From sequence record NC_049948.1: DNA of 50,126 bases. One strand, written 5' to 3'. Position numbers and translations under genes: made by a program. Below, in pieces: positions 7,463 to 38,427 of this stretch (positions are counted from its first letter, which is position 1; every line of letters starts with the position of its first letter). This DNA comes from Escherichia phage ev017. Under the pieces are notes generated by a model that searched no databases, was not told where the DNA came from, and worked only from the letters and a program-made list of their open reading frames with translations.

Positions 7463-7513
7463 TCCGTGAGCGGGGGCGAAATGCCCCCGTGTCTTTTTTC
7501 ACAGGGGGCTGAT

Positions 7514-8234: not shown

Positions 8235-8245
8235 AAGGGGGATGT

Positions 8246-13698: not shown

Positions 13699-14396
13699 TG
13701 CAGGATATCCGGCAGGAAACATTGAATGAATGCACCCGTGCGGAGCAGTCGGCCAGCGTGGTGCTCTGGGAAATCGATCTGACAGAGGTCGGTGGAGAAC
13801 GTTATTTTTTCTGTAATGAGCAGAACGAAAAAGGTGAGCCGGTCACCTGGCAGGGGCGACAGTATCAGCCGTATCCCATTCAGGGGAGTAGTTTTGAACT
13901 GAATGGCAAAGGCACCAGTACGCGCCCCACGCTGACGGTTTCTAACCTGTACGGTATGGTCACCGGGATGGTGGAAGATCTGCAGAGTCTGGTCGGCGGA
14001 ACGGTGGTCAGGCGTAAGGTTTACGCCCGTTTTCTGGATGCGGTGAACTTCGTCAACGGAAACAGCGACGCCGATCCGGAGCAGGAGGTGATCAGCCGCT
14101 GGCGCATCGAGCAGTGCAGCGAACTGAGTGCGGTCAGTGCCTCCTTTGTACTGTCCACACCGACGGAAACGGATGGTGCCGTTTTTCCGGGGCGCATCAT
14201 GCTGGCTAATACCTGCACCTGGACCTATCGCGGTGATGAGTGCGGTTATCACGGTCCGGCGGTCGCGGATGAATATGATCAGCCGACTTCCGATATCACG
14301 AAGGATAAATGCAGCAAATGCCTGAGCGGCTGTAAGTTTCGCAATAACGTCGGCAACTTTGGCGGCTTCCTTTCCATTAACAAACTTTCGCAGTAA
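13698..14396 (+). CDS. L: Tail tip protein L
   Basis: 232-aa ORF matching lambda gpL. Confidence 0.93.
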   Translation: MQDIRQETLNECTRAEQSASVVLWEIDLTEVGGERYFFCNEQNEKGEPVTWQGRQYQPYPIQGSSFELNGKGTSTRPTLTVSNLYGMVTGMVEDLQSLVGGTVVRRKVYARFLDAVNFVNGNSDADPEQEVISRWRIEQCSELSAVSASFVLSTPTETDGAVFPGRIMLANTCTWTYRGDECGYHGPAVADEYDQPTSDITKDKCSKCLSGCKFRNNVGNFGGFLSINKLSQ

Positions 14397-14401
14397 ATCC
14401 C

Positions 14402-15145
14402 ATGACAGAGACAGAATCAGCGATTCTGGCGCATGCCCGGCGATGTGCGCCAGCGGAGTCGTGCGGCTTCGTGGTGAGAGCGCCGGAGGGGGAAAGATAT
14501 TTTCCCTGCGTGAATATCTCCGGTGAGCCGGAGGCGTATTTCCGGATGGCTCCGGAGGACTGGCTGCAGGCAGAGATGCAGGGTGAGATTGTGGCGCTGG
14601 TCCACAGTCATCCCGGTGGTCTGCCCTGGCTGAGTGAGGCCGACCGGCGGCTGCAGGTGCAGAGTGATTTGCCGTGGTGGCTGGTCTGCCGGGGGGCGAT
14701 TCATAAGTTCCGCTGTGTGCCGCATCTCACCGGGCGGCGCTTTGAGCACGGGGTGACGGACTGTTACACGCTGTTCCGGGACGCTTACCATCTGGCGGGG
14801 ATTGAGATGCCGGACTTTCATCGTGAGGATGACTGGTGGCGTAACGGCCAGAATCTCTATCTTGATAATCTGGAGGCCACAGGGCTGTATCAGGTGCCGT
14901 TGTCAGCGGCGCAGCCGGGCGATGTGCTGCTGTGCTGCTTTGGTTCATCGGTGCCGAATCATGCCGCTATTTACTGTGGTGACGGCGAGCTGCTGCACCA
15001 TATTCCTGAACAACTGAGTAAACGAGAGAGGTATACCGACAAATGGCAGCGACGCACACACTCCCTCTGGCGTCACCGGGCATGGCGCGCATCTGCCTTT
15101 ACGGGGATTTACAACGATTTGGCCGCCGCATCGACCTTCGTGTGA
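14402..15145 (+). CDS. K: Tail tip assembly protein K (MPN/JAMM plus NlpC/P60-like); alternative internal start at 14546 gives the 199-aa form
   Basis: 247-aa ORF; HSHPGG...SEAD JAMM-like motif and C-terminal Cys/His hydrolase-like region; overlaps I by ~100 nt. Confidence 0.88.
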   Translation: MTETESAILAHARRCAPAESCGFVVRAPEGERYFPCVNISGEPEAYFRMAPEDWLQAEMQGEIVALVHSHPGGLPWLSEADRRLQVQSDLPWWLVCRGAIHKFRCVPHLTGRRFEHGVTDCYTLFRDAYHLAGIEMPDFHREDDWWRNGQNLYLDNLEATGLYQVPLSAAQPGDVLLCCFGSSVPNHAAIYCGDGELLHHIPEQLSKRERYTDKWQRRTHSLWRHRAWRASAFTGIYNDLAAASTFV

Positions 15146-15714
15146 AAACGGGGGCTGAAGCCATCCGCGCACTGGCCACACAGCTCCCGGTGTTTCGTCA
15201 GAAACTGAGCGACGGCTGGTATCAGGTACGGATTGCCGGGCGGGACGTCAGCACGTCCGGGTTAACGGCGCAGTTACATGAGACTCTGCCTGATGGCGCT
15301 GTGATTCATATTGTTCCCAGAGTCGCCGGGGCCAAGTCAGGTGGCGTATTCCAGATTGTCCTGGGGGCTGCCGCCATTGCCGGATCATTCTTTACCGCCG
15401 GAGCCACCCTTGCAGCATGGGGGGCAGCCATTGGGGCCGGTGGTATGACCGGCATCCTGTTTTCTCTCGGTGCCAGTATGGTGCTCGGTGGTGTGGCGCA
15501 GATGCTGGCACCGAAAGCCAGAACTCCCCGTACACAGACAACGGATAACGGCAAACAGAACACCTATTTCTCCTCACTGGATAACATGGTTGCCCAGGGC
15601 AATGTTCTGCCGGTTCTGTACGGTGAAATGCGCGTGGGGTCACGCGTGGTTTCTCAGGAGATCAGCACGGCAGACGAAGGGGATGGTGGTCAGGTTGTGG
15701 TGATTGGTCGCTGA
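15043..15714 (+). CDS. I: Tail tip assembly protein I
   Basis: 223-aa ORF matching lambda gpI. Confidence 0.92.
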   Translation: MAATHTLPLASPGMARICLYGDLQRFGRRIDLRVKTGAEAIRALATQLPVFRQKLSDGWYQVRIAGRDVSTSGLTAQLHETLPDGAVIHIVPRVAGAKSGGVFQIVLGAAAIAGSFFTAGATLAAWGAAIGAGGMTGILFSLGASMVLGGVAQMLAPKARTPRTQTTDNGKQNTYFSSLDNMVAQGNVLPVLYGEMRVGSRVVSQEISTADEGDGGQVVVIGR

Positions 15715-15774
15715 TGCAAAATGTTTTATGTGAAACCGCCTCCGGGCGGTTTTATCGTTTATGGAGCATGAGGA

Positions 15775-18700
15775 ATGGGTAAAGGCAGCAGTAAGGGGCA
15801 TACCCCGCGCGAAGCGAAGGACAACCTGAAATCATCCCAGATGCTGAGCGTGATAGACGCCATCAGCGAAGGGCCGGTTGAAGGTCCGGTGGATGGATTA
15901 AAAAGCGTGCTGCTGAACAGTACGCCGGTGCTGGACAGTGAGGGGAATACCAATATATTCGGCGTCACGGTGGTGTTCCGGGCCGGTGAGCAGGAGCAGA
16001 CACCGCCGGAGGGATTTGAATCCTCCGGCTCCGAGACGGTGCTCGGTACAGAAGTGAAATATGACACGCCGATCACCCGGACCATCACGTCGGCAAACAT
16101 TGACCGTCTGCGTTTTACTTTCGGCGTGCAGGCACTGGTGGAAACCACCTCAAAGGGGGACAGGAATCCATCGGAAGTCCGCCTGCTGGTTCAGATTCAA
16201 CGTAACGGTGGCTGGGTGACGGAAAAAGACATCACCATTAAGGGCAAAACCACGTCGCAGTATCTGGCCTCGGTGGTGGTGGATAACCTGCCGCCGCGCC
16301 CGTTTAATATCCGGATGCGCAGGATGACGCCGGACAGCACCACAGACCAGTTGCAGAACAAAACGCTCTGGTCGTCATACACCGAAATCATCGATGTGAA
16401 ACAGTGCTACCCGAACACGGCACTGGTCGGCGTACAGGTGGACTCGGAGCAGTTCGGCAGCCAGCAGGTGAGCCGTAATTATCATCTTCGCGGGCGCATT
16501 CTGCAGGTGCCGTCGAACTATAACCCGCAGACGCGGCAATACAGCGGTATCTGGGACGGAACGTTTAAGCCAGCATACAGCAACAACATGGCCTGGTGTC
16601 TGTGGGATATGCTGACCCATCCGCGCTACGGCATGGGGAAACGTCTTGGTGCGGCAGATGTGGATAAATGGGCGCTGTATGTCATCGGCCAGAATTGCGA
16701 CCAGTCAGTGCCGGACGGCTTTGGCGGCACGGAGCCGCGCATCACCTGTAATGCGTACCTGACCACACAGCGCAAGGCGTGGGATGTGCTCAGTGATTTT
16801 TGCTCGGCGATGCGCTGTATGCCGGTATGGAACGGGCAGACGCTGACATTCGTGCAGGACCGACCGTCGGATAAGGTGTGGACCTATAACCGCAGTAATG
16901 TGGTGATGCCGGATGATGGCGCGCCGTTCCGCTACAGCTTCAGCGCCCTGAAAGACCGCCATAATGCCGTTGAGGTGAACTGGATTGACCCGGATAACGG
17001 CTGGGAGACGGCGACAGAGCTTGTGGAGGACACGCAGGCCATTGCCCGTTACGGTCGTAACGTCACGAAGATGGATGCCTTTGGCTGTACCAGCCGGGGG
17101 CAGGCACACCGCGCCGGGCTGTGGCTGATTAAAACGGAGCTGCTGGAAACGCAGACCGTGGACTTCAGCGTGGGTGCAGAAGGGCTTCGCCATGTACCGG
17201 GCGATGTCATTGAAATCTGTGATGATGACTATGCGGGGATCAGCATCGGCGGGCGCGTGCTGGCGGTGAACAACCAGACGCGGACACTGACGCTCGACCG
17301 TGAAATCACGCTGCCATCCTCCGGCACCACGCTGATAAGCCTGGCTGACGGACAGGGGAATCCGGTCAGCGTGGAGGTCCAGTCCGTCACCGACGGCGTG
17401 AAGGTAAAAGTGAGCCGTGTTCCTGACGGCGTTGCAGAATACAGCGTGTGGGGGCTGAAGTTGCCAACGTTGCGCCAGCGCCTGTTCCGCTGTGTGAGTA
17501 TCCGTGAGAACGATGACGGCACGTATGCCATCACTGCCGTGCAGCATGTACCGGAAAAAGAGGCCATCGTGGATAACGGGGCGCACTTTGACGGCGACCA
17601 GAGCGGCACGGTGAATGGTGTCACGCCGCCAGCGGTGCAGCACCTGACTGCCGAAGTCACCGCAGACAGCGGGGAATATCAGGTGCTGGCGCGCTGGGAC
17701 ACGCCGAAGGTGGTGAAGGGGGTGAGCTTTATGCTTCGCCTGACCGTGGCAGCGGATGACGGCAGTGAGCGGCTGGTCAGCACGGCCCGGACGACGGAAA
17801 CCACATACCGCTTCAGGCAACTGGCGCTGGGGAACTACAGGCTGACAGTCCGGGCGGTAAATGCGTGGGGGCAGCAGGGCGATCCGGCATCGGTATCGTT
17901 CCGGATTGCCGCACCGGCAGCGCCGTCGCAGATTGAGCTGACACCGGGGTATTTTCAGATAACCGCCACGCCGCATCTTGCGGTTTATGATCCGACGGTA
18001 CAGTTTGAGTTCTGGTTCTCGGAAAAGCGGATTGCGGATATCAGGCAGGTTGAAACCACAGCACGCTATCTTGGCACGGCGCTGTACTGGATAGCCGCCA
18101 GTATCAATATCAAACCGGGCCATGATTATTATTTTTACATCCGCAGTGTGAACACCGTTGGCAAATCGGCATTTGTGGAGGCTGTTGGCCAGCCGAGTGA
18201 TGATGCATCCGGCTATCTGAATTTTTTCAAAGGAGAGATAGGGAAAACCCATCTGGCTCAGGAGTTGTGGACGCAGATTGATAACGGTCAGCTTGCGCCT
18301 GACCTGGCTGAAATCAGGACGTCCATTACGGGTGTCAGCAATGAAATCACGCAGACCGTCAATAAGAAACTGGAAGACCAGAGTGCAGCGATCCAGCAGA
18401 TACAGAAGGTTCAGGTTGATACAAATAATAACCTGAACAGCATGTGGGCTGTGAAGCTGCAGCAGATGCAGGACGGACGCCTTTATATCGCGGGTATTGG
18501 TGCCGGTGTTGAGAATACTCCTGACGGTATGCAGAGTCAGGTGCTGCTGGCGGCGGACAGGATTGCGATGATTAATCCTGCGAATGGCAACACAAAGCCG
18601 ATGTTTGTTGGGCAGGGCGATCAGATATTCATGAACGAAGTGTTCCTGAAATATCTGACGGCTCCCACCATTACCAGCGGTGGCAATCCCCCAACGTTTT

Positions 18701-19257
18701 CACTGACACCTGATGGTCGACTTTCTGCGAAAAATGCGGATATCAGCGGTAACGTGAACGCGAACTCCGGGACGCTCAACAACGTCACGATTAATCAGAA
18801 CTGTCGGATTCTGGGAAAACTGTCAGCTAACCAGATTGAAGGTGATATTGTCAAAACGGTGGGAAAAGCCTTTCCGAGAAATGGCAGTTATGCCAGCGGT
18901 ACAATAACGGTCACTGTGTACGATGACCAGGCTTTTGACCGTCAGATAGTAGTCCCCCCCGTTCTGTTTCGTGGGGGTAAGCATGAAAACTTCAACAGCA
19001 ACAACCAACAGTCATACTGGTATTCAACCTGTAAGCTGCAGGTACTGAAGAACGGACAGGAAATCTTTCAGCAACCCGCGACGGATGTCAGCAGGGTATT
19101 TTCATCAGTCATTGATATGCCTGCCGGACACGGCCATGTCACCCTGACTTTCAATGTTTCTTCATATGGTGCTAATAACTGGACGCCAACGACCAGTATC
19201 AGCGACCTTCTTGTTGTTGTGATGAAGAAATCTACAGCCGGTATCAGTATCAGTTGA
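15775..19257 (+). CDS. J: Tip attachment / central tail fibre protein J (host specificity)
   Basis: 1160-aa ORF; N-terminal ~800 aa collinear with lambda gpJ, C-terminal receptor-binding region appears divergent. Confidence 0.93.
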
Positions 19258-19275
19258 ATTTTATAACCCAGATAC

Positions 19276-19304
19276 GGGCGCCAGAAATGGCGCCTTTTTT
19301 ATTT
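19276..19304 (+). terminator. Rho-independent terminator-like hairpin downstream of J
   Basis: GGGCGCC-AGAAAT-GGCGCC stem-loop followed by a T-run. Confidence 0.6.
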
Positions 19305-19315
19305 GTGGAGTGAAT

Positions 19316-21376
19316 ATGGCAGTACAGATTTCAGGCGTGCTGAAAGACGGTGCAGGAAAACCGATACAGAACTGCACCATTCAGCTCAAAGCAAAACGTA
19401 ACAGCACCACGGTTGTGGTGAACACGGTGGCCTCAGAAAATCCGGATGAAGCCGGACGTTACAGCATGGATGTCGAGTATGGCCAGTACAGCGTTATCCT
19501 GCTGGTTGAAGGTTTTCCGCCTTCACATGCCGGGGCCATCACCGTGTATGAGGATTCTAAGCCGGGGACATTGAATGATTTTCTGGGCGCTGCAACAGAA
19601 GATGATGTTCGTCCGGAGGCACTGTATCGTTTTGAAAAGATGGTGGAAGAGGTGGCACGCAACGCTGAAGCCGCCTCTCAGAGCGCAGCGGCAGCAAAGA
19701 AATCAGAAACAGCAGCGGCATCGTCCAGGAATGCGGCGAAAACATCAGAGACGAATGCAGGTAACAGCGCGAAAGCGGCAGCTTCTTCAAAAACAGCCGC
19801 ACAAAACGCAGCAACAGCGGCAGAACGTTCAGAGACAAATGCCCGTGCGTCAGAAGAAGCCTCCGCAGACAGTGAAGAGGCTTCCCGCCGTAATGCAGAG
19901 TCAGCCGCTGAAAATGCCGGAGTCGCCACCACAAAAGCGCGGGAGGCCGCAGCAGACGCAACAAAGGCCGGGCAGAAAAAGGATGAGGCTCTGTCGGCAG
20001 CGACACGGGCTGAAAAGGCGGCAGACCGCGCAGAAGTCGCAGCGGAAGTGACTGCAGAGCCCTATGCGAATATAGTGCCGCCGCTGCCTGATGTGTGGAT
20101 ACCGTTTAACGATTCACTGGATATGATTGCGGGTTTTTCTCCGGGCTATAAAAAAATAGCTATTGGTGACGATGTGGTTCAGGTCGCCAGTGATAAACAG
20201 GTTAATTTCAGTCGCGCATCAACGGCAACATATATCAACAAATCTGGCGAACTGAAAACGGCGGAAATTAATGAGCCGCGATTTGAGTGTGATGGCCTGC
20301 TTATTGAGGGACAAAGAACGAACTACATGCTCAATTCGGAAAGTCCAGCCAGCTGGGGGAAGTCATCAAACATGGATGTGCCCGAAACCGGGACAGATAG
20401 TTTTGGTTTTACTTATGGAAAGTTTGTCTGCAACGATTCTCTGGTTGGGCAAACTTCGGCTATTAATATGGCATCAATTGCTGCAACAAAGTCAGTTGAT
20501 GTCTCAGGCGATAACAAGTACGTGACAACCTCATGCCGTTTTAAAACAGAACGACAGGTAAGGTTACGTATACGGTTTGATAAGTATGATGGTAGTGCAA
20601 CAACTTTTCTTGGCGATGCGTACATTGATACGCAAACGCTTGAAATTAATATGACAGGTGGGGCTGCCGGCAGAATTACGGCACGAGTCAGGAAGGATAA
20701 GACCACAGGCTGGATTTTTGCAGAGGCAACGATTCAGGCAATTGATGGTGAGTTAAAAATAGGCTCTCAGATACAGTATTCTCCTGAGCGGGGTGGGGCA
20801 ACAGTATCTGGTGACTATATTTATCTTGCCACCCCACAAGTAGAGAATGGGCCGTGTGTATCATCATTTATTATTTCAGGAGGCAGCGCAACGACAAGAG
20901 CCAGTGATTTGGTTAGTATCCCCACCAGAAATAATCTTTATAAGTTACCATTTACTTTTTTACTTGAGATTCATAAAAACTGGGATATTGCACCAAACGC
21001 CGCACCCCGCGTGTGGGATATAGCAGCAGCCAATACCGGGCAATCAGCAATTGCAGCAATCAACAGAGGTAGTGGTAAGTTATATATGAGTCTGTCAAAC
21101 CCTTCAGGCTTGTATGTTAATAGCGCAGCGACAGATGTATTTGCAGAGAAAACCACATTTGGATGTATTGCAAAAGCTGATGGTCACTTTCATGTGGTGA
21201 CAAATGGTAAAGCGGTTAATGAAGTTTATTGTGAATATAATGGTGTGACCGCTGATAAAAATATCCGATTTGGAGGGCAGACGAATACTGGAGAACGACA
21301 TCTGTTTGGCCATATTCGCAATTTCCGCATATGGCATAAAGAATTAAATGACAGGCAATTAAAAGAGGTCGTATGA
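19316..21376 (+). CDS. stf: Side tail fibre protein (Stf-like N-terminus, divergent C-terminal domain)
   Basis: N-terminus MAVQISGVLKDGAGKPIQNCTIQLKA...GRYSMDVEYGQYSVIL matches lambda Stf; Ala/Ser-rich repeat shaft; low-GC C-terminal half. Confidence 0.85.
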   Translation: MAVQISGVLKDGAGKPIQNCTIQLKAKRNSTTVVVNTVASENPDEAGRYSMDVEYGQYSVILLVEGFPPSHAGAITVYEDSKPGTLNDFLGAATEDDVRPEALYRFEKMVEEVARNAEAASQSAAAAKKSETAAASSRNAAKTSETNAGNSAKAAASSKTAAQNAATAAERSETNARASEEASADSEEASRRNAESAAENAGVATTKAREAAADATKAGQKKDEALSAATRAEKAADRAEVAAEVTAEPYANIVPPLPDVWIPFNDSLDMIAGFSPGYKKIAIGDDVVQVASDKQVNFSRASTATYINKSGELKTAEINEPRFECDGLLIEGQRTNYMLNSESPASWGKSSNMDVPETGTDSFGFTYGKFVCNDSLVGQTSAINMASIAATKSVDVSGDNKYVTTSCRFKTERQVRLRIRFDKYDGSATTFLGDAYIDTQTLEINMTGGAAGRITARVRKDKTTGWIFAEATIQAIDGELKIGSQIQYSPERGGATVSGDYIYLATPQVENGPCVSSFIISGGSATTRASDLVSIPTRNNLYKLPFTFLLEIHKNWDIAPNAAPRVWDIAAANTGQSAIAAINRGSGKLYMSLSNPSGLYVNSAATDVFAEKTTFGCIAKADGHFHVVTNGKAVNEVYCEYNGVTADKNIRFGGQTNTGERHLFGHIRNFRIWHKELNDRQLKEVV

Positions 21377-21651
21377 AAGATTTAACTTTGAAGTTTCATG
21401 ACAAACTGCAGTTTAAGGCCTTCCTGTCATCTCTTGACTGGGAGGAGGATGAAGACCTCCAGAATAAACTGTTAGTCGATGAAATTGGTTTCACCTACAC
21501 AGAAACAGGGGTAACAGAAGAGGGAGAACCTGTCTGTGTCCGGAATGACGGTTATTTTGTCAACATTCGCATTCTTGATGACTTGTTTGATGTTTCTGTA
21601 TTCTCTGATTATGTCGTGGAGCTGGAAACACCGCTTCGGGAATGGAGCTGA
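21373..21651 (+). CDS. Hypothetical small acidic protein downstream of tail fibre (possible fibre-associated factor)
   Basis: 92-aa ORF whose start overlaps the stf stop; low GC; no recognised motif. Confidence 0.45.
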   Translation: MKDLTLKFHDKLQFKAFLSSLDWEEDEDLQNKLLVDEIGFTYTETGVTEEGEPVCVRNDGYFVNIRILDDLFDVSVFSDYVVELETPLREWS

Positions 21652-21663
21652 AAGGAGGAAATA

Positions 21664-21957
21664 ATGGATATAAGCCCCTTACTTCATGCGCTTTGTGCTG
21701 TGGCTGCGCAGATACTGGTTGGTCTTTTTACCGGAAACTGGGCTTACGGAGCGATAGCCGGTTGTACGTTCTTCATTGCGCGTGAACATACCCAGGCAGA
21801 ATATCGCTGGATTGAAATGTTCGGGCATGGCAAGCGAATGAATATGCCGTGGTGGGGCGGTTTTGATCCGCGAGCTTGGGATGTGGCAAGCCTGATGGAT
21901 TTTGCTGTGCCGGTGGTGGCGTGTCTGCTGGTCTGGCTGTTGGTTAATCGTGGGTGA
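21664..21957 (+). CDS. Hypothetical membrane protein
   Basis: 97-aa ORF with RBS-like GGAGG upstream and two hydrophobic segments. Confidence 0.45.
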   Translation: MDISPLLHALCAVAAQILVGLFTGNWAYGAIAGCTFFIAREHTQAEYRWIEMFGHGKRMNMPWWGGFDPRAWDVASLMDFAVPVVACLLVWLLVNRG

Positions 21958-22048
21958 AAAAAGGTGAGCTGTATATGCAACGGAGGAAGAACCCCCGTTG
22001 CTGGAAGCCAGGAAAAAGTATCGGGTGTTGCTGTCCTCGGATGTTGTG

Positions 22049-22906
22049 CTAATTGGGTGATAACAGATCCTGTGTATGGGAGTTTCCCTTTTTGCGTGCG
22101 TTGATGCTGGTAACGGCAAACGTCATGATGAACAAAACCGCGAATAAGACGACAATCGTCGGAGCTGGTGCGCTGTCGATAAAAAAGGACAACCAGACAC
22201 CAGTCATTGACACTATTACCGATATGCCAGTCGCCAGTAGGAGCGCAATATGAAAGCGTTGTGTCAGGAGTACCGCAATGGCGCCAGGCGCAATGAGCAG
22301 AGAAATGGAGAGAATGATACCTACCGCTTTCAGCGTCGCCACAATGGTCAGAGAGACCATGCACAGCAGCCCATAATGCAGCCATCTCGTATGCAAACCG
22401 CTTACCTGCGCCTGTTGATAATCAAAGCTGAACAGCAAAAAATCCCGCCATTTTACGCTAATAACAAGTGTAACCAGCCCGGCAATAATCATCGTCTGGA
22501 TTATATCGCCGATGGTTATCCCGAGCATGTCGCCGAAAAGAATATGGTCAAGATGTACGTCTGGTTTGACTGCAATATACAAGATCAGACCTGCGGCAAA
22601 CATGCCAGAAAAAACAATCCCCATCACTGTATCTTGCTTGATTCGGCTGTTGTCTTTCAGGTATCCCGTCGCCACCGCGCAGAATACTCCGGCGACGAAT
22701 GCCCCTGTAGCCAAAGGTAACCCCAGAATCCAGGCAAGCACGATTCCAGGAAAAACCGCATGACTCATCGCGTCACCCATCAGTGCCCAACCTTTCAGGA
22801 CCAGAAAGACCGACAGCAGCGCACAGGGTATGGAAACTACCAGTGAAATCAGCAGTGCGTGACTCATAAAGGTGAACTGCAGTGGCTCCAGTAATAATGC
22901 CATCAT
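22049..22906 (-). CDS. sitD: Iron/manganese ABC transporter permease SitD
   Basis: 285-aa polytopic membrane protein typical of the ABC-3 permease family; last gene of a 4-gene operon. Confidence 0.88.
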   Translation of the reverse strand: MMALLLEPLQFTFMSHALLISLVVSIPCALLSVFLVLKGWALMGDAMSHAVFPGIVLAWILGLPLATGAFVAGVFCAVATGYLKDNSRIKQDTVMGIVFSGMFAAGLILYIAVKPDVHLDHILFGDMLGITIGDIIQTMIIAGLVTLVISVKWRDFLLFSFDYQQAQVSGLHTRWLHYGLLCMVSLTIVATLKAVGIILSISLLIAPGAIAVLLTQRFHIALLLATGISVIVSMTGVWLSFFIDSAPAPTIVVLFAVLFIMTFAVTSINARKKGNSHTQDLLSPN

Positions 22907-23760
22907 GAGCGATCCTCCAGCGCCTTATGCGCACGCCGACGATTTGCCAAAAGCCCATGGGTGGGCGCAAAGACAAATGCTAAAAGAAACAGCAGTGTCT
23001 GCGCCACCACGATGATTCCACCTGTCGCGCCGTCCAGAAAGTAACTGACCCACGCGCCGAGGAAACTAGTTACACTGCCAATAGTTACAGCAATCATGAG
23101 CAGGCGGGGAAAACGATCGGTTAACAACCATGCTGTTGCACCGGGAGTCACCACCAGACAGATCACCAGAAAGGCACCAACCGTTTGCAGCGCCGCAACG
23201 GTCGAAACCGACAGCAGGGTGAAGAAGATGAGTTTTAATCTGCCCGGATGCAATCCAATAGCACGGGCGTGATTCTCGTCGAAAAAGGTCACCATAAGAT
23301 CTTTCCATTTGAAAAAAAGCACGATGATCGAGAGAATGCCAATGATAGTGAGTTGCAGGATATCCGCCGGATCGATTGCCAGAATATTGCCCAGGACGAT
23401 GGTCTGAATGTTCACAGATGTCGGGTTCAATGACACCATAAACAGCCCCAGGCCAAAAAAGGACGAGAAGATCAGACCGATGATGGCATCTTCTTTTAAG
23501 CGGGTGCGTTGGTTAAGAAACAGCATGCTGCCCGCAGCCAGTCCGCCGGAAAAGAAGGCTCCCAGAGAAAACGGAAGCCCCAGCATATATGCCCCCGCAA
23601 CACCCGGGACAATAGAGTGCGACAACGCATCGCCAATCAGCGACCAGCCTTTTAGCATCAGATAGCATGACAGGAAAGCGCAGAGACCGCCGACCATCGC
23701 CGAGACCCACATCGCATTGAGCATATATTCATAGCTGAAGGGTTCCAGTAGCACGTTCAT
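22903..23760 (-). CDS. sitC: Iron/manganese ABC transporter permease SitC
   Basis: 285-aa ABC-3 family permease, translationally coupled to sitB and sitD. Confidence 0.88.
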
Positions 23761-24584
23761 CTTTCTTCCCTCTGCACCGCTGACGGTCGATGAGCCACAA
23801 AAGGGCGTTCATCGTCAGTAATAATGCTTTCTTCCGAGCCGTTAAGTGTGACATGGCGCAGTACGCCGCTAAAAGCCAGCTCTAGGTTCTCGGCTGTAAA
23901 AGTGGTGTCTGTCGGCCCGCTTGCCAGGACGGTGCCTTTGACCATGACCGTATAATCGCAAAATGTCGTGACGGATCCGAGATTGTGTGTTGAGACAAGC
24001 ATCGTTTTGCCTTCCGCGCGTAACTCCCTCAACAGGCTGATGATTTTGGCTTCGGTTTTCACATCAACGCCAGTAAAAGGTTCATCCAGCAGGATCACAT
24101 CACCCTGCTGTGCAATCGCTCTCGCCAGAAAGACGCGTTTCTTTTGTCCACCGGAAAGCTCGCCGATTTGTCGATGGCGAAAATTCACCATATCGACACG
24201 TTCCAGCGCATCGGTGACAATTTGACGATCCCTCTTTTTGGCGATACGCAACATACCCATATGCCCATAGCGGCCCATCATCACCACATCTTCCACCAGT
24301 ACAGGAAATGACCAGTCAACATCTTCTGACTGAGGGACGTAGGCAACCAGGTTTTTCTGTAACGCCTGTCGCGTGGGAATACCCAGAACAGATATCTTTC
24401 CGCTGGTCAGACGCACAAATCCCATAATCGCTTTAAACAACGTCGATTTTCCGGAACCGTTTACCCCAACCAGAGCGGCAATAGATCCACTTGGTACTGT
24501 GAAGGATGCATCGCGCAGTGCTGTGTGCCCGTTACGCCAGGTGACAGTAACATCATTAACGACAATGCCTGCAGATTGCATCAT
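23757..24584 (-). CDS. sitB: Iron/manganese ABC transporter ATP-binding protein SitB
   Basis: Walker [13 protein letters not shown] signature LSGGQKKR, Walker B ILLDEP. Confidence 0.92.
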
Positions 24585-25498
24585 TATTTCTCCCTTTTCC
24601 CAGCTTTAATTCCCTGTACCAGCGTACTGGTAGTAACCTTAAGAAGGTCGATATACGTCGGTACCGGGCCGTTTTCTGTGCTCAGGGAATCGACATAGAG
24701 CACACCGCCGTAGTGTGCGCCGGTTTCACGCGCAACCTGACGCGCTGGTTTATCGGAAATCGTACTCTCGCTAAAGACTGCCGGGATATGATTTTTCTTA
24801 ACTATATCAACAACCTTACGTACCTGCTGCGGTGTTCCTTGTTGATCGGCATTAATCGGCCACAGATAAAGCTCTTTTAGCCCCAAATCGCGTGCGAGAT
24901 AAGAAAAAGCCCCTTCACTGGTGACCATCCATCGCTGATTCTCAGGGAGTTCCGTAATCTGCTTACGCAGGGGGGCAAGGGTTTGGGTAATCTTGGCTTT
25001 ATAAGTATCGGCATTGCGTTGGTAGGTTTGTGCATTTGCCGGATCGTATTTTATCAACGCATCACGAATATTATCGACGTAAATCAGAGCATTATCTGGC
25101 GACATCCATGCATGGGGGTTAGGTTTGCCCTCATAGGGTCCTTCGGTGATCCCTACAGGCGTCACACCCGAAGAGACAATTACTTCTGGAACCCCATTGA
25201 GATGCTGGTAAAAGCGTTGGAACCACAATTCCAGATTCATACCATTGGCGAGAATCAGTTGTGCCCCCTGCGCACGTTTAATATCGCCAGGGGTAGGCTG
25301 ATACTCATGAATTTCTGCACCAGGCTTGGTTATGGATGAGACTTCTGCAGCATCTCCCGCCACGTTTTTGGCCATATCCGCGATGATGGTAAATGTTGTA
25401 ATGACCTTGAATTTTTCAGTTGCACTTGCCTGAAATGCGATCGAGCAGGTGAGTGCGAGGCCCCCCAAGAGCATGGTTACTTTTTTTATCGAGTGCAT
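24584..25498 (-). CDS. sitA: Periplasmic metal-binding protein SitA
   Basis: 304 aa with N-terminal signal peptide; cluster-9 metal-binding lipoprotein-like; first gene of operon. Confidence 0.88.
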
Positions 25499-25530
25499 AA
25501 TTTAGTACCTATAGTGAGCAAAATTAGAAC

Positions 25531-25552
25531 AAACATAGCAACGGCTATGTTT
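25531..25552 (-). promoter_or_regulatory. MntR box-like palindrome in sit promoter
   Basis: AAACATAGC-n4-GCTATGTTT inverted repeat upstream of sitA. Confidence 0.65.
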
Positions 25553-25570
25553 TATAGCACAACCTATACA

Positions 25571-25590
25571 AAATGAAAATGATTATCATT
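25571..25590 (-). promoter_or_regulatory. Fur box-like site in sit promoter
   Basis: AAATGAAAATGATTATCATT resembles the Fur consensus GATAATGATAATCATTATC. Confidence 0.6.
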
Positions 25591-25883
25591 AGCGGTTTTG
25601 AGGCCCAAAACAGGGATTAGGTTGTTTCCGGCTGGCGACGCGTTATTGAGGAAAAAAGTAAGGCAGCTAGTAGGCTTTGAAATAACGTTTTGCGGTTGGC
25701 TGATGCAATTTCGAGAGTGCATGTATTGAATGATTTCTAGCCGTTACTGATTTTCGTATTTTTTGTATGGGAGGATTTGCACCTCTCCCCACCGAGCCTC
25801 CATGACTTTACTCCACTGTCTCTAGGGCTGCTGTGTGCCAGGAGCGGAAGCAGGGGGGCCAGAGACTCCTTAAAAGTTGATAG

Positions 25884-25985
25884 CTCGTTTTGCAGGGAGA
25901 CTTACACGGTAAGCGTTATTCCGAAGAGCTTAAAATTGAAGCAGTCAAACGGGTTGTTGAGCGTGTTTATGCGCTGCCATCTGAT
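25884..25985 (+). mobile_element. Possible remnant of an IS3-family transposase OrfA (fragment only)
   Basis: Short frame encoding ...GKRYSEELKIEAVKRVVERVYALPSD resembles the N-terminal HTH region of IS3-family OrfA; no intact transposase or inverted repeats seen. Confidence 0.25.
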
Positions 25986-26184
25986 TAATCGACGGAAGCA
26001 GTTCCGTTTGGTCTATGATGCAGTTGTCCGGCAGGCGCTCTGTGACGCAAAAGAACGATAGGAGTAGCATTGAAGTGAACGAGGTTATGCTTGTCTTATA
26101 TTATCCTCTATTTTAAAAACATCAGCTGGTTGTGTAAGAGTTTTTATTGTTTTATCTTGTTGACTTTGCTTTTATGAAAACAGA

Positions 26185-26955
26185 GTGATTGATACAATGA
26201 AAACCTTAAGTGGGAAAGAGTTTAGGAAATTATTTAATCGTTATGAGACAGGATTCTATCTAAGTGAGTTTGAATACTTAAAGGACTTTGATCCTTTGTT
26301 TCCTGAATGCGTAGGGAAAGAATTAAAGTTGGGTTATAAACGAAAAGTTGATGTATGGTGCGAAGAGGATGCTGCGCTATATGCAGAATTTATAGCTACA
26401 AAAGAAAGGCTGAAAAGAGGCCGGTTAATCCTAAAAATAAACCAAGTGTGGTCGCGTGTATATCCTGCTTATATTTATGCAATTGAAGAAAGAATAAATG
26501 TCAGGGCAAAGGGGAGAGAGTCATTTAAGTATGAAACTGTGCAAGAAAAACAATGTAAACTTTCCATAATGTTAGATGGTCTGAAAGACCTTGAATGTGA
26601 AATAGCTATGATTTCAAGTGAGTTTGAAATTGAAAAACACTCTATGCACTATTTTTATATGATTTTTGATATTGAACGCTATATAAATGACTGCAGTTAC
26701 TTTGTTTTTTCTGCTGCTAAAGTTGTTAAAGGCGTGATTCAATGCATTGGTTACATTGACAAAAATAACAAAGCAAGTTGCGATGAATTTTATTCAGGCA
26801 GCTATGAATGCTTGGATGATGATCAGGAAACACTGAACTATTTAAATGAATCATGCGCAGAGGGTATAGACGCTGATAAAGATCTCATCAGGAAGAATGA
26901 GTTATTAGCCTTATCCCTGAAGGAATTGTATCAACTTCTCGTTTCAAAAAAATAA
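26185..26955 (+). CDS. Hypothetical protein (AT-rich orphan cargo gene)
   Basis: 256-aa ORF, markedly AT-rich relative to its flanks, own upstream AT-rich region; no recognised motif. Confidence 0.6.
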   Translation: MIDTMKTLSGKEFRKLFNRYETGFYLSEFEYLKDFDPLFPECVGKELKLGYKRKVDVWCEEDAALYAEFIATKERLKRGRLILKINQVWSRVYPAYIYAIEERINVRAKGRESFKYETVQEKQCKLSIMLDGLKDLECEIAMISSEFEIEKHSMHYFYMIFDIERYINDCSYFVFSAAKVVKGVIQCIGYIDKNNKASCDEFYSGSYECLDDDQETLNYLNESCAEGIDADKDLIRKNELLALSLKELYQLLVSKK

Positions 26956-27414
26956 CAAGTAATACGGCGAGCGATATGACGTGCCATGGGATATCCGCAC
27001 CCAGCAGCATGTTGTCTCCACGATGTCCGCAGTTCGCTCATAATAGACATTCACTACAGTTATAGTAGAAGGTATGCATGCTGCTGAGTGGGGAAAGTGT
27101 GAAAGAAAAGAAGACAGCTGCTTTGTTTGTCGTCACGTTTATCTTCATTGGCTATGCAAGTCGTAATACAAGGCGGGACAAAACTGAGACACATAAGGCC
27201 TCGCAATGGCTTGCAAGGCCACACATGTATTGAGATGTTAATAAAATGTAGACTTGTAATTTTGATATAAATGGTAGAGAAAATCTTTCCCCAAAATAAA
27301 AACGAACGTCAATGAAATCAAACGGTTGAATAAAGTTGATTTTGGCTAATACAAAGACAAGAAAATAATATTTATGATTAAATATCAGCGAGTTGAATAC
27401 ATAATTTTTATATA

Positions 27415-27579
27415 CTGCTGCGCCATATGGGCTGGACTGAAGCCGCAGACCTGATTGTTAAAGGTATGGAAGGCGCAATCAATGCGAAGACCGTAACCTA
27501 TGACTTCGAACGTCTGATGGAAGGCGCTAAGCTGCTGAAATGTTCAGAGTTTGGTGATGCGATCATCAAGAATATGTAA
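27415..27579 (+). other. icd': Phage-borne 3' fragment of icd (isocitrate dehydrogenase) within the attP region
   Basis: Encodes ...[52 protein letters not shown]-stop, matching the C-terminus of E. coli Icd with substitutions; no upstream icd body. Confidence 0.8.
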
Positions 27580-27602
27580 TCACTACATGTGTTAAATATT
27601 GT

Positions 27603-27630
27603 AACGGGCGTATAACACGCCCGTTGTTTT
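27603..27630 (+). terminator. Rho-independent terminator-like hairpin after the icd fragment
   Basis: AACGGGCG-TATAACA-CGCCCGTT stem-loop followed by GTTTT. Confidence 0.6.
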
Positions 27631-27644
27631 ATGATGATGTAAAA

Positions 27645-27685
27645 TCTTCCCCAAAACTTTCCCCAAAACCCTTCCCCAAAACTGG
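27645..27685. repeat. Three tandem (C/T)TTCCCCAAAAC repeats; candidate integrase arm-type binding sites (a further copy at about 27284-27297)
   Basis: Direct repeats read in the sequence, immediately adjacent to the int stop. Confidence 0.55.
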
Positions 27686-27692
27686 CTATTTT

Positions 27693-28835
27693 CTATGCTG
27701 TTTTGATATCTACGATAATCCAGTCTTTACCACGATCATCATTGTATCGGTCGGTCATTTTTCTGGATTTATGACCTAACAACTTTTGCGTATCCAGACC
27801 CTGTTCCCGATATAACCGTTCTGACAGAGATCGCTGCTCATGAAATGTGGGCGCAGTTCCTGGCTCCCATTTTATGCCACATTTTTCCCTGGCCTTTTTA
27901 AAAGCCGTTGTAAGAGTATTTGCAGACACCTGGTCTCCTCTGTTTGCTTGAGAGGTAGTGTGACGGTAATGGACCAGATATTTACTAACAACAGCATCCC
28001 TGCACTGAGATATAACTTCACGAAGGGTAATATTCAGAGCATCGCATTTCAGGTTAAGCGGAATAGCAAGTTTTGAACCGGTTTTTTCCTGAGTAATGTG
28101 CAACATGTCGTCCCAGATATCAGAGAATTTCAAATTGCAGATATCGCCTAAACGTTGTCCAGTGACAAGAGCAAGTAGCATCCCGCATTTTAAATAGGGC
28201 TGCCGTCTGCTTACGCTGTCAAATATTGCCTGCCATTCGGGCAGTGATAATCTTTGGCGGTTTACTCGATTTCGCGGTTGTTTTGTTGCCTGCGCTGGGT
28301 TAAATCCTGGCGGAACATGTCCTGCGTGTTGTGCTTCTTTGAAGACGTCGATCAACACCATTCTCACGACTTGCGCCATCCTGTTATGACCTTCAGCCTT
28401 TACAGCATCAATTATTTCGGCAATATCAAGTGCGGTAATATCCTTGAGGTGTTGCATTCCACAATGCTCACGGAAAAGACGAATGGGTTTGCCTTTTTGC
28501 CGATAGGAGTTGGGTCTTAGTTCATTATGTTGCAGCCTGTCCTCCTGGATAGAAATATATTTATCAAGCCATTCTGTCACCGTAATGTCTGAGCGCCTGC
28601 CTTTCATTCTTTCTAGACGCTCATTGACGCTTAATATTTGTCGGGTACGTTGTTCAGCAATAATGGTATTTGCTTCAGTAGCAACTTGTTTTGCTTCATT
28701 CTCATCAGTTCCTAAGCTATGAAAACGACCGGATAGTGGATGTTTGTATTGCCAATATACCTTTCCGGTTCGCTTATCTAATTTGCAATATAAATTGGGT
28801 ATAGAGATTTTGTGAGATCGGGGTCTAGCAGCCAT
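27693..28835 (-). CDS. int: Tyrosine integrase (icd-targeting, phage 21/e14-like)
   Basis: 380-aa ORF; catalytic-domain R...HxxR...Y pattern (LGHKSRKMTDRY); adjacent to icd fragment and xis. Confidence 0.9.
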   Translation of the reverse strand: MAARPRSHKISIPNLYCKLDKRTGKVYWQYKHPLSGRFHSLGTDENEAKQVATEANTIIAEQRTRQILSVNERLERMKGRRSDITVTEWLDKYISIQEDRLQHNELRPNSYRQKGKPIRLFREHCGMQHLKDITALDIAEIIDAVKAEGHNRMAQVVRMVLIDVFKEAQHAGHVPPGFNPAQATKQPRNRVNRQRLSLPEWQAIFDSVSRRQPYLKCGMLLALVTGQRLGDICNLKFSDIWDDMLHITQEKTGSKLAIPLNLKCDALNITLREVISQCRDAVVSKYLVHYRHTTSQANRGDQVSANTLTTAFKKAREKCGIKWEPGTAPTFHEQRSLSERLYREQGLDTQKLLGHKSRKMTDRYNDDRGKDWIIVDIKTA

Positions 28836-29061
28836 CAGCGATTATCCGTTGGAGTTTTGGGTTTGCGTTTATTGGGAGTTGCGGTTCTGCAAGCGTTCCT
28901 ACAAAACGGGAATTTCGGTCAATCATCCAGTAGCGACCAACTTTTATAGCGGGTGGGGCCATCATTTTCCCTTGCGCGTATTTTTTCAGAACTCGCTCAC
29001 TTGGTGCTAAGTCCCCAAATTCTTCTTTAGCCCAGTCCTGTAAAGTGATTAGTCGAGACAT
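28825..29061 (-). CDS. xis: Excisionase
   Basis: 78-aa ORF overlapping the int start; LITLQDWA...winged-helix-like N-terminus. Confidence 0.7.
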   Translation of the reverse strand: MSRLITLQDWAKEEFGDLAPSERVLKKYAQGKMMAPPAIKVGRYWMIDRNSRFVGTLAEPQLPINANPKLQRIIADGC

Positions 29062-29465: not shown

Positions 29466-29750
29466 TTATTCAGTGCCGATATTTACCTTTATCGCGTATA
29501 CCTTTACCGGTTTATCACCGAAGTGCGGATGTGTGATTGTCTTCACTTCATATCCGTCATACGGAACATCAACTCTGCGGCTGGAATCGTCGCGCTTCGG
29601 ATATCCCTTTGTGATAATCAGGCGGTCATGCTTACGGTTAACGAGGCGCTTTTTCCAGTAGTCATTACACAGGCGATACTCTTCCGTTTTCTCTCCGCGA
29701 ATCATGGCATCGAAGTATTCACCTTTAACGGCAAGTTGCAGGTTAGCCAC
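29466..29750 (-). CDS. ASCH/DUF3850-like domain protein
   Basis: LQLAVKGEYFDAMIRGEKTEEYR resembles the ASCH-like fold motif; probable GTG start at 29750 preceded by AAGGAG. Confidence 0.5.
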   Translation of the reverse strand: MANLQLAVKGEYFDAMIRGEKTEEYRLCNDYWKKRLVNRKHDRLIITKGYPKRDDSSRRVDVPYDGYEVKTITHPHFGDKPVKVYAIKVNIGTE

Positions 29751-30483
29751 GGTTAACTCCTTGCTGTGTGGCGTCGAGTAATAAATCCCACAACCGCTGA
29801 GAGCAATTTCCGCATGTACAGCGTTGACCCACAACGTTTATCGCGTTGCTGATTTCCGGCGTTACCTGTTTAGGAACCATAACCCAACCATCCGGAGTTA
29901 CCGGAAGCGAGAACGGCAGCACATCTCTGTGAACAAGTTTTTGCTGTGACAGGTTATCCAGAACTTTCTGTACTGCTGCATCACCGAATACACCAAGCGC
30001 ATCTGCCATAACTCCTACAACCTGATAAGCCTCAGCGCATACCGTGGATAAACCATCCGGAATTACCGGAGAGTTGCCGGGTTCTTTAATGTGCAAGCGA
30101 GGCTCACCATCTTTTGGCTCAGGCCACTGGCGCTCCATGTTGATCTTCAATTTATCTTCCATAGCAACGGTAATTTCAGCATCGCTGATGCCAGCACGGC
30201 GCTGTGCATCCCACAACAGAAACTGCATATCAGCCCACTCGCTAAGATCGTCTGGTTCGGCTGCGGCTTCCAGTGCCTCTTTTGAGAGGTGTTTCAGTGG
30301 ACCAATGGGGCCAACGCAGCCAAATGTGGAGTCAGACCATTTGGCATGCTCGTGGCGAATCTGTTCGCGTTCCAGTGATGCCAGTGCAATTCGTGCTAGT
30401 TCCATTTGTTCGCCACGAGTAAGCCCGTTTTCAAGCGGATTTTTAATGAACAATTCAATACGTTCTTTGGTAATAGTGGTCAT
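29743..30483 (-). CDS. Hypothetical protein
   Basis: 246-aa ORF; shares an NSPVIPG segment and an ~20-bp DNA repeat with the 30691-31224 gene. Confidence 0.55.
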   Translation of the reverse strand: MTTITKERIELFIKNPLENGLTRGEQMELARIALASLEREQIRHEHAKWSDSTFGCVGPIGPLKHLSKEALEAAAEPDDLSEWADMQFLLWDAQRRAGISDAEITVAMEDKLKINMERQWPEPKDGEPRLHIKEPGNSPVIPDGLSTVCAEAYQVVGVMADALGVFGDAAVQKVLDNLSQQKLVHRDVLPFSLPVTPDGWVMVPKQVTPEISNAINVVGQRCTCGNCSQRLWDLLLDATQQGVNRG

Positions 30484-37674: not shown

Positions 37675-38427
37675 TTATGCTGCAAGTCTCTTAACCCAAG
37701 TCTCTCTTTTGGAGAATGGTAGAACTTGGCTTGATTCATGGAAGAGTAAGGAGAGTTGTTGCATTTGATCACCAATTGCTTCGCTGTCTATAACAACAAA
37801 TCTGTTGTTATACTCCTCACTTGAAGCTTTAAGATCAATTAGTTTCCCAAGCAATGAGTAAGCACTATTCCAGCTTCCTCCGTGTTTCACGCTTGATGTA
37901 AAAACGTATTTAGGTATGTCGGTTTTTATTGTTACAGGGACGGTAATTTGATGTCCACTCAAGCCATATACGTTTTCACGAAGAGAAAGTGCGTCTCTAA
38001 GCTCTGTGTGATATAGATAATCAATAACCATACTTTCAAACTTTTCAGCTTGAACTGGCTGATACCAGTCTAACGACAAAGTTGATGCGAGTATACCAGC
38101 TCTAATTATGTTCGATGTAATCGCACCGACATCCTTTTCTGTTGCCCAAGCAATGATTTCTCCTCGAGCATTGAGTTCTGCGCCTTCTTTAAGCAGTAAT
38201 TGTCGTATCTCATCAAGTCGTTTTTTGGTAAGCGAGATCCCTCTTGCCTCCATATTCATTAAGGCATCGCATCTGTCACTAACTAAATACCTACCATTGA
38301 CTTCACGGATAAAGGCACCGACATGCTCTCCATCATCACAGTAAGTGAATGGACTGATAATTCTCAAGGTCTTGCCTATTGGATGGCATTCGAAACCTAG
38401 TTGTGAGATCACTGTTGAGCACATCAT
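37675..38427 (-). CDS. Hypothetical protein, gene 2 of a two-gene cassette at the rexAB-equivalent locus (candidate phage exclusion/defence component)
   Basis: 250-aa ORF, AT-rich, overlapping the stop of the upstream 185-aa ORF; same strand as cI; no recognised catalytic motif. Confidence 0.65.
   Translation of the reverse strand: MMCSTVISQLGFECHPIGKTLRIISPFTYCDDGEHVGAFIREVNGRYLVSDRCDALMNMEARGISLTKKRLDEIRQLLLKEGAELNARGEIIAWATEKDVGAITSNIIRAGILASTLSLDWYQPVQAEKFESMVIDYLYHTELRDALSLRENVYGLSGHQITVPVTIKTDIPKYVFTSSVKHGGSWNSAYSLLGKLIDLKASSEEYNNRFVVIDSEAIGDQMQQLSLLFHESSQVLPFSKRETWVKRLAA

Follow-up and report, generated by a model that had tools for sequence, protein, structure and literature searches.

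Positions 22049-25498 of the genome of Escherichia phage ev017 (NC_049948.1; 50,126 nucleotides (nt), the whole of which was analysed and is called the window below) carry four genes on the minus strand:

24584-25498, minus strand: sitA, 304 amino acids, periplasmic cluster A-I metal-binding protein (Pfam PF01297, E = 9e-86)
23757-24584, minus strand: sitB, 275 amino acids, ABC ATPase (NCBIfam NF011630)
22903-23760, minus strand: sitC, 285 amino acids, permease (Pfam ABC-3, PF00950, E = 9e-83)
22049-22906, minus strand: sitD, 285 amino acids, permease (Pfam ABC-3, E = 1.5e-76)

Each gene is an uninterrupted open reading frame (ORF) with an ATG start and one terminal stop, and the four products contain a ZnuA-type binding protein, an ABC_tran, an ABC-3 and an ABC-3 domain, respectively, with Pfam E-values of 1e-30 to 1e-86. 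The locus is thus the complete four-gene, minus-strand ABC operon that an earlier note on this DNA had placed here; the stretch given in that note extends to 25600 and so also includes the regulatory sites that precede sitA. The gene order established from the ORFs and their Pfam domains (binding protein, ATPase, permease, permease) recurs in about 60 other loci besides those of Salmonella arizonae and Phytobacter. The 4-nt overlaps described in the earlier note are present at the sitB/sitC and sitC/sitD junctions (ATGA), but sitA and sitB overlap by 1 nt only (TAATG), with another ATG located 3 nt downstream. The one 1-nt and two 4-nt start/stop overlaps would couple the translation of the four genes. 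Rfam and tRNA scans yielded no match in or near the operon. In our assessment, the region is very probably an intact sitABCD operon, a 'moron' that constitutes a self-contained accessory cassette within the b region of a lambdoid temperate phage of the phage-21 type, which integrates into icd.

The encoded proteins place the transporter in a well-defined family. SitA has a Sec-type signal peptide and lacks a lipobox, and it matches the YfeA structure 5uxs with an E-value of 4e-125. Its metal residues H64, H129, E195 and D270 align with H76, H141, E207 and D282 of YfeA, with all four residues of the His-His-Glu-Asp site 1 (as given in PMC6719664) retained. SitB matches the model NF011630 ('manganese/iron ABC transporter ATP-binding protein') over its full length at 592.8 bits (cut-off 393), and contains a Walker A motif at residue 40, the LSGGQ motif at 143, a Walker B motif at 163 and an H-loop at 199. 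RefSeq names all four proteins SitABCD. The best 80 loci of a genome-contig scan included none from E. coli, Shigella or S. enterica subsp. enterica; the Salmonella comparator was S. enterica subsp. arizonae, whose SitA, SitB, SitC and SitD share 74, 76, 86 and 70% amino-acid identity with the phage proteins in the same A-B-C-D order; the Phytobacter Sit proteins are 86-94% identical, and the Salmonella SitA fragment 5jg7 matches phage SitA with an E-value of 3e-86. One distant SitA relative on a viral contig (L100) was rejected as phage cargo, as it proved to be host flank beyond an integrase. With the NF011630 cut-off passed, the YfeA metal site in place and 70-86% identity, the proposed Mn/Fe-type metal ABC importer syntenic with Salmonella sit is borne out.

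The operon therefore encodes a SitABCD/YfeABCD-type importer whose substrates, by analogy with its homologues, would be Mn2+ and Fe2+. SitA would act as the periplasmic binder, SitB as the ATPase, and SitC and SitD as a heterodimeric permease, together importing both metals. SitABCD of Salmonella, Shigella and avian pathogenic E. coli (APEC) has roles in Mn/Fe transport, peroxide resistance and virulence (PMC3852070). An assignment to another ABC family that does not import Mn or Fe, either a zinc-specific system (ZnuABC or AztABC) or a siderophore or haem system, might be considered, given that the Pfam family of SitA bears the name 'ZnuA' and that the sub-threshold NCBIfam matches include the zinc models AztC and AztB (E of about 1e-55). 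We consider this assignment highly improbable. The zinc models score far below their cut-offs (66 versus 268 bits for ZnuA, 78 versus 284 for ZnuB, 197 versus 350 for AztC and 187 versus 280 for AztB), whereas SitB exceeds that of the Mn/Fe equivalog; the metal site of SitA is that of the Mn/Fe binder YfeA, the predicted operators upstream of sitA are of the Fur and MntR types, and the RefSeq names likewise point to SitABCD. Zinc-specific binding proteins are marked by a third histidine and a His-rich loop.

The sit operon is oriented opposite to the late genes and has its own operator-bearing upstream region, in which three elements were recognized:

25575-25593, minus strand: predicted Fur box GCTAATGATAATCATTTTC, 17/19 consensus positions, 77-95 nt upstream of the sitA ATG
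25554-25567, minus strand: second, imperfect palindrome ATAGG-ttgt-GCTAT, between the Fur box and the MntR operator
25531-25552, minus strand: predicted MntR-type operator, perfect palindrome AAACATAGC-cgtt-GCTATGTTT, 33-54 nt upstream of the sitA ATG

The Fur box is the sole site within three mismatches in the window (0.01 expected by chance), and is kept in six Enterobacteriaceae sit promoters as well as in the plasmid and second-prophage alleles described below. The MntR-type operator, also flagged as a 9-pair hairpin, is an exact match to AACATAGC-N4-GCTATGTT, which we take to be the MntR consensus, and is conserved across the E. coli alleles, in Salmonella and in other genera. The TGTGCTATA block of the second palindrome is invariant in the six-species alignment, and this element might be another MntR site or belong to the promoter. 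Fur- and MntR-type operators are thus located upstream of sitA, and the two regulators would be predicted to bind them. In a consensus scan, the region upstream of sitA yielded no strong sigma-70 promoter, and the sequence following sitD no intrinsic terminator; the only match of the terminator scan upstream of sitA was the MntR palindrome itself. Mathieu 2020 (PMC6969025) describes a Fur box upstream of phage-borne sit, and PMC3852070 reviews the repression of sitABCD by MntR; the passages available from Mathieu 2020 and Misson 2023 do not mention an MntR operator. We envisage that sit is read from its own promoter, overlapped by the Fur box and the MntR operator. Given such a promoter, we propose that in a lysogen sit would answer to the iron and manganese sensors of the host, which would induce it upon shortage of these metals without involvement of the phage repressor.

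The surroundings of the operon define its position in the phage genome:

19310-21376, plus strand: side tail fibre gene (Pfam phage_tail_N, E = 1e-68; phage 21 annotation)
21373-21651 and 21664-21957: two small conserved ORFs (PHROGs 1361 and 1443)
25777-26061: small ORF with no Pfam, PHROG or PADLOC match
26185-26955: orphan ORF
27287-27681, plus strand: attP region, comprising an icd 3′ fragment, a terminator and four arm-type repeats
27412-27579: icd 3′ fragment, in translation the last 55 codons of isocitrate dehydrogenase
27601-27627: icd terminator, within the attP region
27693-28835, minus strand: int, lambda-type tyrosine integrase (Pfam Arm-DNA-bind_1 and Phage_integrase)
28825-29061, minus strand: xis, excisionase (annotations of related phage records)

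With the side tail fibre gene on the left and icd, attP and int on the right, sit lies between the tail fibre genes and attP, in agreement with the earlier note. The operon points against the neighbouring tail genes, and in an integrated prophage would lie about 1.7-2 kb from the right end. The arm-type repeat TTCCCCAAAA occurs in four copies (at 27287, 27647, 27659 and 27672, the last three within 27647-27681) against 0.09 expected, and the phage 21 record annotates an icd pseudogene together with attP. The KE51 chromosome matches the window up to position 27630 and then continues into host genes, its prophage lying at icd beside a partial icd. The contig ends fall inside cosN, GGGCGGCGACCT. 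The cos ends, the lambda-type int and xis, the icd fragment in attP and the KE51 prophage at icd identify a phage-21-type lambdoid phage that integrates at icd. The cosN ends are those expected of linear packaged DNA, and plaque-forming relatives have the same operon, in support of the view that sit is packaged in virions. For the orphan ORF, Pfam, NCBIfam and PDB searches returned no match and PADLOC returned only one over 25 residues (E = 0.003); its single-sequence AlphaFold model has a mean pLDDT of 32.6. The phage 21 record terms the IS3 resemblance of the ORF at 25777-26061 unconvincing. The ends of the window are untrimmed Illumina adapters.

Comparison with other sit-bearing and sit-less genomes delimited a mobile unit that is slightly larger than the operon:

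22022-25686: mobile sit cassette, about 3.65 kb, starting 7-27 nt past the sitD stop and ending about 188 nt upstream of the sitA start

The IncF plasmid pB1W1 matches 22022-25686 at 96.7%, and a second lambdoid prophage (SPF_0923 record) matches 22029-25683 at 97.5%. The sit-less phage Tritos shares 21653-22033 with the window and diverges thereafter; in Tritos, HannyBb, PhiR49_1 and mEp460_4F5, the left flank is present and sit is absent. These related phages, together with the dispensability of the region, uphold the description of sit as non-essential cargo. In a lambdoid prophage of a different lineage, the cassette is located at the end; on IncF plasmids and in islands, it is bordered by IS elements. 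Around 22022 and 25686, a search for direct or inverted repeats of at least 14 nt, or for IS ends, that might account for capture of the cassette gave no match.

These comparisons also bear on whether the sit segment could be an assembly chimera, created when host or plasmid reads were assembled into a phage contig. Adapter sequence remains at both ends of the window, which is a raw assembly without trimming, and sit is present on plasmids in about 1000 records, making a contaminating template conceivable. However, of 5426 complete E. coli genomes, 1188 contain the identical left junction and 781 the identical right junction, and both junctions are found in independently sequenced phages, namely phage 21 (from 1950s Paris sewage), ev207, 1H12, Perceval and PhiR57_1, the last of which is 100% identical. 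Moreover, the allele in the window is of the phage/chromosomal type (99.7-100% to phage 21) rather than the plasmid type (96.7%). Since both junctions recur in hundreds of independent complete genomes, a chimeric join, which the earlier note had named as something to be checked, is ruled out, and this explanation is effectively refuted. In total, positions 21000-27000 are covered to at least 80% by 18 phage genomes in the databases, among them phage 21 and PhiR57_1.

The closest relatives place the operon as a shared component of this phage group. PhiR57_1 (PV340572) is 100% identical over the region and 99.9-100% identical over the rest, but is deposited from int onward and without the sequence at window positions 27234-27692. 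Escherichia phage 21 (OL657228; 42.9 kb) is 99.6-99.8% identical from cos to past int, with SitA at 99.7%, but differs in the early/immunity region. Both agree with ev017 in the sit operon and its junctions, the icd fragment, the attP repeats and the integrase, and their records annotate SitA-D. Infant-gut phages such as ev207, 1H12 and Lambda_2E9 and the prophage Perceval of the adherent-invasive E. coli (AIEC) strain LF82 carry the same cassette at the same position with 99.1-99.7% identity, whereas elsewhere they show mosaic differences: lom is present in Perceval, and IS insertions occur in some relatives. According to Mathieu 2020 (PMC6969025), 70% of infant-gut lambda isolates carry sitABCD, which is described there as a moron.

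The sitABCD of IncF/ColV plasmids and the chromosomal 'PAI sit' of Shigella and E. coli have the same cassette limits, 95-99% amino-acid identity and conserved Fur and MntR sites, but are flanked by IS1, other IS elements and aerobactin genes instead of phage genes, and their upstream region is only about 84% identical. The plasmid allele is reportedly the copy whose roles in Mn/Fe transport and peroxide resistance were characterised in APEC. The APEC work is described in PMC3852070 without stating which sit copy was used. Salmonella SPI-1 sitABCD and Yersinia yfeABCD have the same four-gene order, the YfeA metal site and the Fur and MntR promoter layout, with 70-86% identity for S. arizonae; unlike the operon studied here, they are chromosomal rather than phage-borne, and represent orthologues at genus distance.

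Phage-borne sitABCD is already known: GenBank phage records annotate it, and Mathieu 2020 (PMC6969025) and Misson 2023 (PMC9928086) discuss it as a common lambda moron that has a Fur box and is transcribed in lysogens. Our confirmation of the operon therefore adds no new biology.

By analogy with characterised homologues, a lysogen would gain a second high-affinity Mn/Fe importer and, with it, better tolerance of peroxide and of metal limitation; metal uptake, peroxide resistance and any fitness effect in lysogens would follow those of the homologues. The benefit may be conditional or small, because many hosts already have MntH and Feo, and in the literature searched we found no direct comparison of the phenotype of a lysogen with that of a Δsit derivative and no benefit assay. 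A reading in which sit is mere baggage, either silent or in decay, that leaves the lysogen unaffected could appeal to the dispensability and frequent decay of b-region genes, to IS insertions beside or inside the region in some relatives (H19-H24 and H31), and to the lack of a sigma-70 consensus match upstream of sitA. Nevertheless, all four sit ORFs are full-length with intact catalytic and metal-binding motifs, the predicted Fur and MntR operators are both conserved, and sit identity is at least 99% across hundreds of genomes. Furthermore, Misson 2023 (PMC9928086) reports that the sit genes of Perceval are transcribed in the LF82 lysogen at 4-13-fold over the prophage background. We therefore regard inert baggage as very unlikely, and favour an operon that is expressed in the lysogen under host control.

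Another possibility is that sit is also transcribed during lytic growth, by N-antiterminated transcription from pL running leftward through xis, int and attP into the b region, and that it thereby serves the phage as an auxiliary metabolic operon. In the non-integrated genome, int, xis and the pL operon share the strand of sit and lie upstream of it, so early-left read-through across attP would be possible after infection, and only weak terminator-like hairpins are present on that strand between int and sit. The lambda pL transcript enters the b region. However, about 2 kb, including an opposite-strand ORF, separates int from sit, and in an induced but unexcised prophage, sit and the pL operon lie at opposite ends. 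If it occurred, such read-through would increase Mn/Fe import in lytic growth and leave sit in the lysogen under host Fur and MntR only, thus adding to, rather than replacing, the host-controlled expression proposed above. On balance, we judge lytic transcription of this kind to be unlikely.

The phage would in addition be a vehicle that spreads sit. Phage carriage is one route by which a metal importer associated with fitness and virulence moves among E. coli and Shigella, and the prevalence of sit provides context for the ecology of gut and extraintestinal E. coli. The operon is present in 44% of complete E. coli genomes, and about half of these keep the left phage junction. Because about 70% of the chromosomal sit places in these genomes keep this junction (1188 genomes versus 1683 places), our data suggest that, on chromosomes, sit is carried mainly by 21-like prophages.

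The four open reading frames of the sit operon run uninterrupted over 22049-25498 on the minus strand, each with an ATG start and a single terminal stop, and their Pfam domains bear out the earlier note's description of a four-gene ABC transporter operon on this strand:

24584-25498, minus strand: sitA, 304 aa, ZnuA/TroA-type periplasmic binding protein (Pfam E = 9e-86)
23757-24584, minus strand: sitB, 275 aa, ABC ATPase (Pfam E = 2e-30)
22903-23760, minus strand: sitC, 285 aa, ABC-3 permease (Pfam E = 9e-83)
22049-22906, minus strand: sitD, 285 aa, ABC-3 permease (Pfam E = 1.5e-76)

The 4-nt overlaps that the note had described exist at sitB/sitC and sitC/sitD (both ATGA), but sitA and sitB overlap by 1 nt (TAATG), with a further in-frame ATG 3 nt after the first.

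SitB contains Walker A, LSGGQ, Walker B and H-loop motifs and scores 592.8 bits against the NCBIfam model NF011630 (manganese/iron ABC transporter ATP-binding protein; cut-off 393). A zinc ABC family was rejected, with NCBIfam scores of 66 against a cut-off of 268 for ZnuA, 197 against 350 for AztC and 78 against 284 for ZnuB. The nearest solved structure for SitA is that of Yersinia pestis YfeA (E = 4e-125), whose site-1 ligands are His76, His141, Glu207 and Asp282 (PMC6719664); all four are kept in SitA, as His64, His129, Glu195 and Asp270, in an alignment with a constant offset of 12. The comparison with Salmonella, run with Salmonella enterica subsp. arizonae, revealed the same A-B-C-D order and amino acid identities of 74, 76, 86 and 70%, and the nearest non-Escherichia operon among the matches listed is that of Phytobacter (86-94% identity). 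Thousands of E. coli records in RefSeq carry exactly these proteins under the names SitA-D. The operon itself is confirmed, and its interpretation as a phage-borne metal importer is supported.

The region upstream of sitA contains three operator-like blocks:

25593-25575, minus strand: predicted Fur box GCTAATGATAATCATTTTC, 17/19 positions of the Fur consensus
25567-25554, minus strand: imperfect second palindrome, between the Fur box and the MntR palindrome
25552-25531, minus strand: putative MntR operator AAACATAGC-cgtt-GCTATGTTT, a perfect palindrome

The Fur-type site is unique in the 50 kb (chance expectation, 0.01), and the perfect palindrome exactly matches the MntR consensus AACATAGC-N4-GCTATGTT. 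Across six genera, these blocks are what is conserved upstream of sitA, and all three are retained in the alleles of an IncF plasmid and a second lambdoid prophage. Between the phage and the IncF plasmid (25490-25686), the upstream non-coding sequence is ~84% identical, whereas the coding sequence is ~97% identical, with the Fur and MntR sites retained. Simple scans detected neither a sigma-70 consensus upstream of sitA nor a terminator after sitD. In Salmonella and Shigella, MntR and Fur are established repressors of sitABCD (PMC3852070).

In the best-supported reading, sit would mediate Fur/MntR-responsive Mn/Fe import in the lysogen from its own promoter. Loss of metal from Fur and MntR would switch the operon on, irrespective of the phage repressor; SitA would capture periplasmic Mn2+/Fe2+ and deliver it to SitCD, with SitB supplying the power. 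The lysogen would thereby acquire metal uptake and, by analogy with homologues, tolerance of peroxide. Beyond the anatomy, family, operators and mobility of sit, which were observed directly, its substrates, regulator binding and host benefit are suggested by homologues (PMC3852070) and by published transcription of the sit copy of prophage Perceval in LF82, at 4-13-fold above the prophage background (PMC9928086). Judging from the layout, early-left read-through might express sit in lytic growth too, because sit follows int on the pL strand, although we consider this improbable.

The window is a lambdoid phage, with lambda-like head, tail, recombination, immunity, replication and lysis modules annotated throughout. 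Phage 21 (OL657228) matches 91-25000 at 99.6%, and the sit-bearing phage PhiR57_1 (PV340572) matches the entire phage part at 99.9-100%. The note had placed sit between the tail fibre genes and attP, and its right-hand neighbour is indeed the phage-21 attachment module:

27412-27579: icd 3′ copy, the last 55 icd codons, with its own terminator alongside
27287 and 27647-27681: four arm-type repeats TTCCCCAAAA (0.09 expected by chance)

In this attP layout (27287-27681), the captured icd 3′ end and terminator are flanked by one TTCCCCAAAA on the left and three in tandem on the right, and int and xis complete the module to the right of sit. Such an arrangement lets the phage integrate into icd while leaving the gene functional, as is documented for phage 21 and e14. 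E. coli KE51 carries the same prophage at icd, its chromosome following window 14030-27630 at 99.88% and then continuing into ycgX and bluR; the right end of the prophage lies ~1.7-2 kb from sit. Between sit and attP is an orphan ORF (26185-26955, plus strand, 256 aa, GC ~36%; PHROG 20520, unknown function) that matches nothing in Pfam, NCBIfam or the PDB; its single-sequence structure model was unusable (pLDDT 33). Among phage records it occurs only in the 18 with sit and an icd-type integrase, and may be a second moron.

A chimeric assembly join at sit, which the note had raised as a refuting possibility, was dismissed from junction recurrence rather than reads. A 401-nt probe over the left junction and a matching one over the right, counted at ≥80% coverage, hit 1188/5426 and 781/5426 complete E. 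coli genomes, respectively, and ≥80% of 21000-27000 is present in 18 phage records. The sit operon is present in 2384 of the 5426 genomes, at 1683 chromosomal and 1061 plasmid places; the SitA-D allele here is of the phage/chromosomal type (99.7-100% to the phage 21 proteins), not the plasmid type.

Matches in other contexts delimit a mobile cassette. The IncF plasmid match spans 22022-25686 (96.7%), that of the second lambdoid prophage spans 22029-25683 (97.5%), and similarity to the sit-less phage Tritos covers 21653-22033, beyond which the two diverge. From these boundaries, the cassette comprises the operon, a promoter region of ~188 nt and 7-27 nt of 3′ sequence. In the second prophage, sit is the last element after stf-tfa, followed by the host genes uspF and ompN; an IS-ridden aerobactin island is a third context. 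No flanking repeats indicating an insertion route were found around the cassette.

The presence of sit on phages is already known, and nothing of substance here is new. SitABCD is annotated in phage 21, ev207, 1H12, Perceval, PhiR57_1 and others, and the EAEC 042 genome paper (2010) listed sit as prophage cargo. Mathieu et al. 2020 report sit, with a Fur box, on 70% of infant-gut lambda phages and propose an iron and manganese acquisition benefit (PMC6969025), and Misson et al. 2023 demonstrate that sit is an expressed moron (PMC9928086). A direct phenotype comparison of sit+ and Δsit lysogens was not found in the searchable literature.

The 197 bases at the window ends are library artefact, not phage: untrimmed poly-T, Illumina P7 sequence, i7 index TCGCCTTA and Nextera read-2 transposase adapter at 1-90, and an untrimmed reverse-complemented mosaic end, i5 index ATAGAGAG, corrupted P5 and poly-A junk at 50020-50126. 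Phage sequence opens (91) at position 10 of the 12-nt cohesive end GGGCGGCGACCT and closes (50018-50019) at position 2, so that the contig edges lie 9-10 nt inside each filled-in terminus and the contig lacks the middle 6-7 nt of cosN; it has no host flank. Ends of this kind would be expected from tagmentation of linear, cos-ended DNA and are therefore consistent with packaged genomes. Near-identical phages were obtained as plaque formers (PMC6969025, PMC9928086).

Other accessory genes were observed. Between N and cI, the interval occupied by rexAB in lambda, a gene pair (37675-38427 and 38424-38981, both minus strand) matches DUF1828/DUF6978 as well as PDC-M24, a candidate defence system in PADLOC (full-length B match, E = 5e-10; A, E = 5e-4). 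The pair is probably an anti-phage system encoded by the prophage. Also present are bor (48154-48447, minus strand), a porin of the OmpD/NmpC type (45281-46423, minus strand) located between Q and the lysis genes, and a TonB C-terminal-domain fragment (48874-49254, plus strand; Pfam TonB_C, E = 1e-12). Expression of the porin and the TonB fragment as Perceval morons has been reported (PMC9928086). The pairing of a TonB fragment with a metal importer in one phage is curious. In the early-left region, an ORF (29743-30483, minus strand) labelled only 'EaA' in the identical GenBank record has a dATP/dGTP pyrophosphohydrolase domain (PF04447, E = 8e-42). Among distant SitA relatives on viral contigs, one rejected as phage cargo (L100) had only host flank. 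On unrelated viral contigs of ~50 kb, a distant three-gene metal ABC operon (L103, IMGVR_UViG_2811995228_000002, 5965-8560; SitA identity 52%; likewise L104, L108 and L110) has a large terminase gene on one side and genes for a ParB-methylase, a C5-methylase and a SAM synthetase on the other, which may reflect separate captures of cluster A-I metal importers in other phage lineages.
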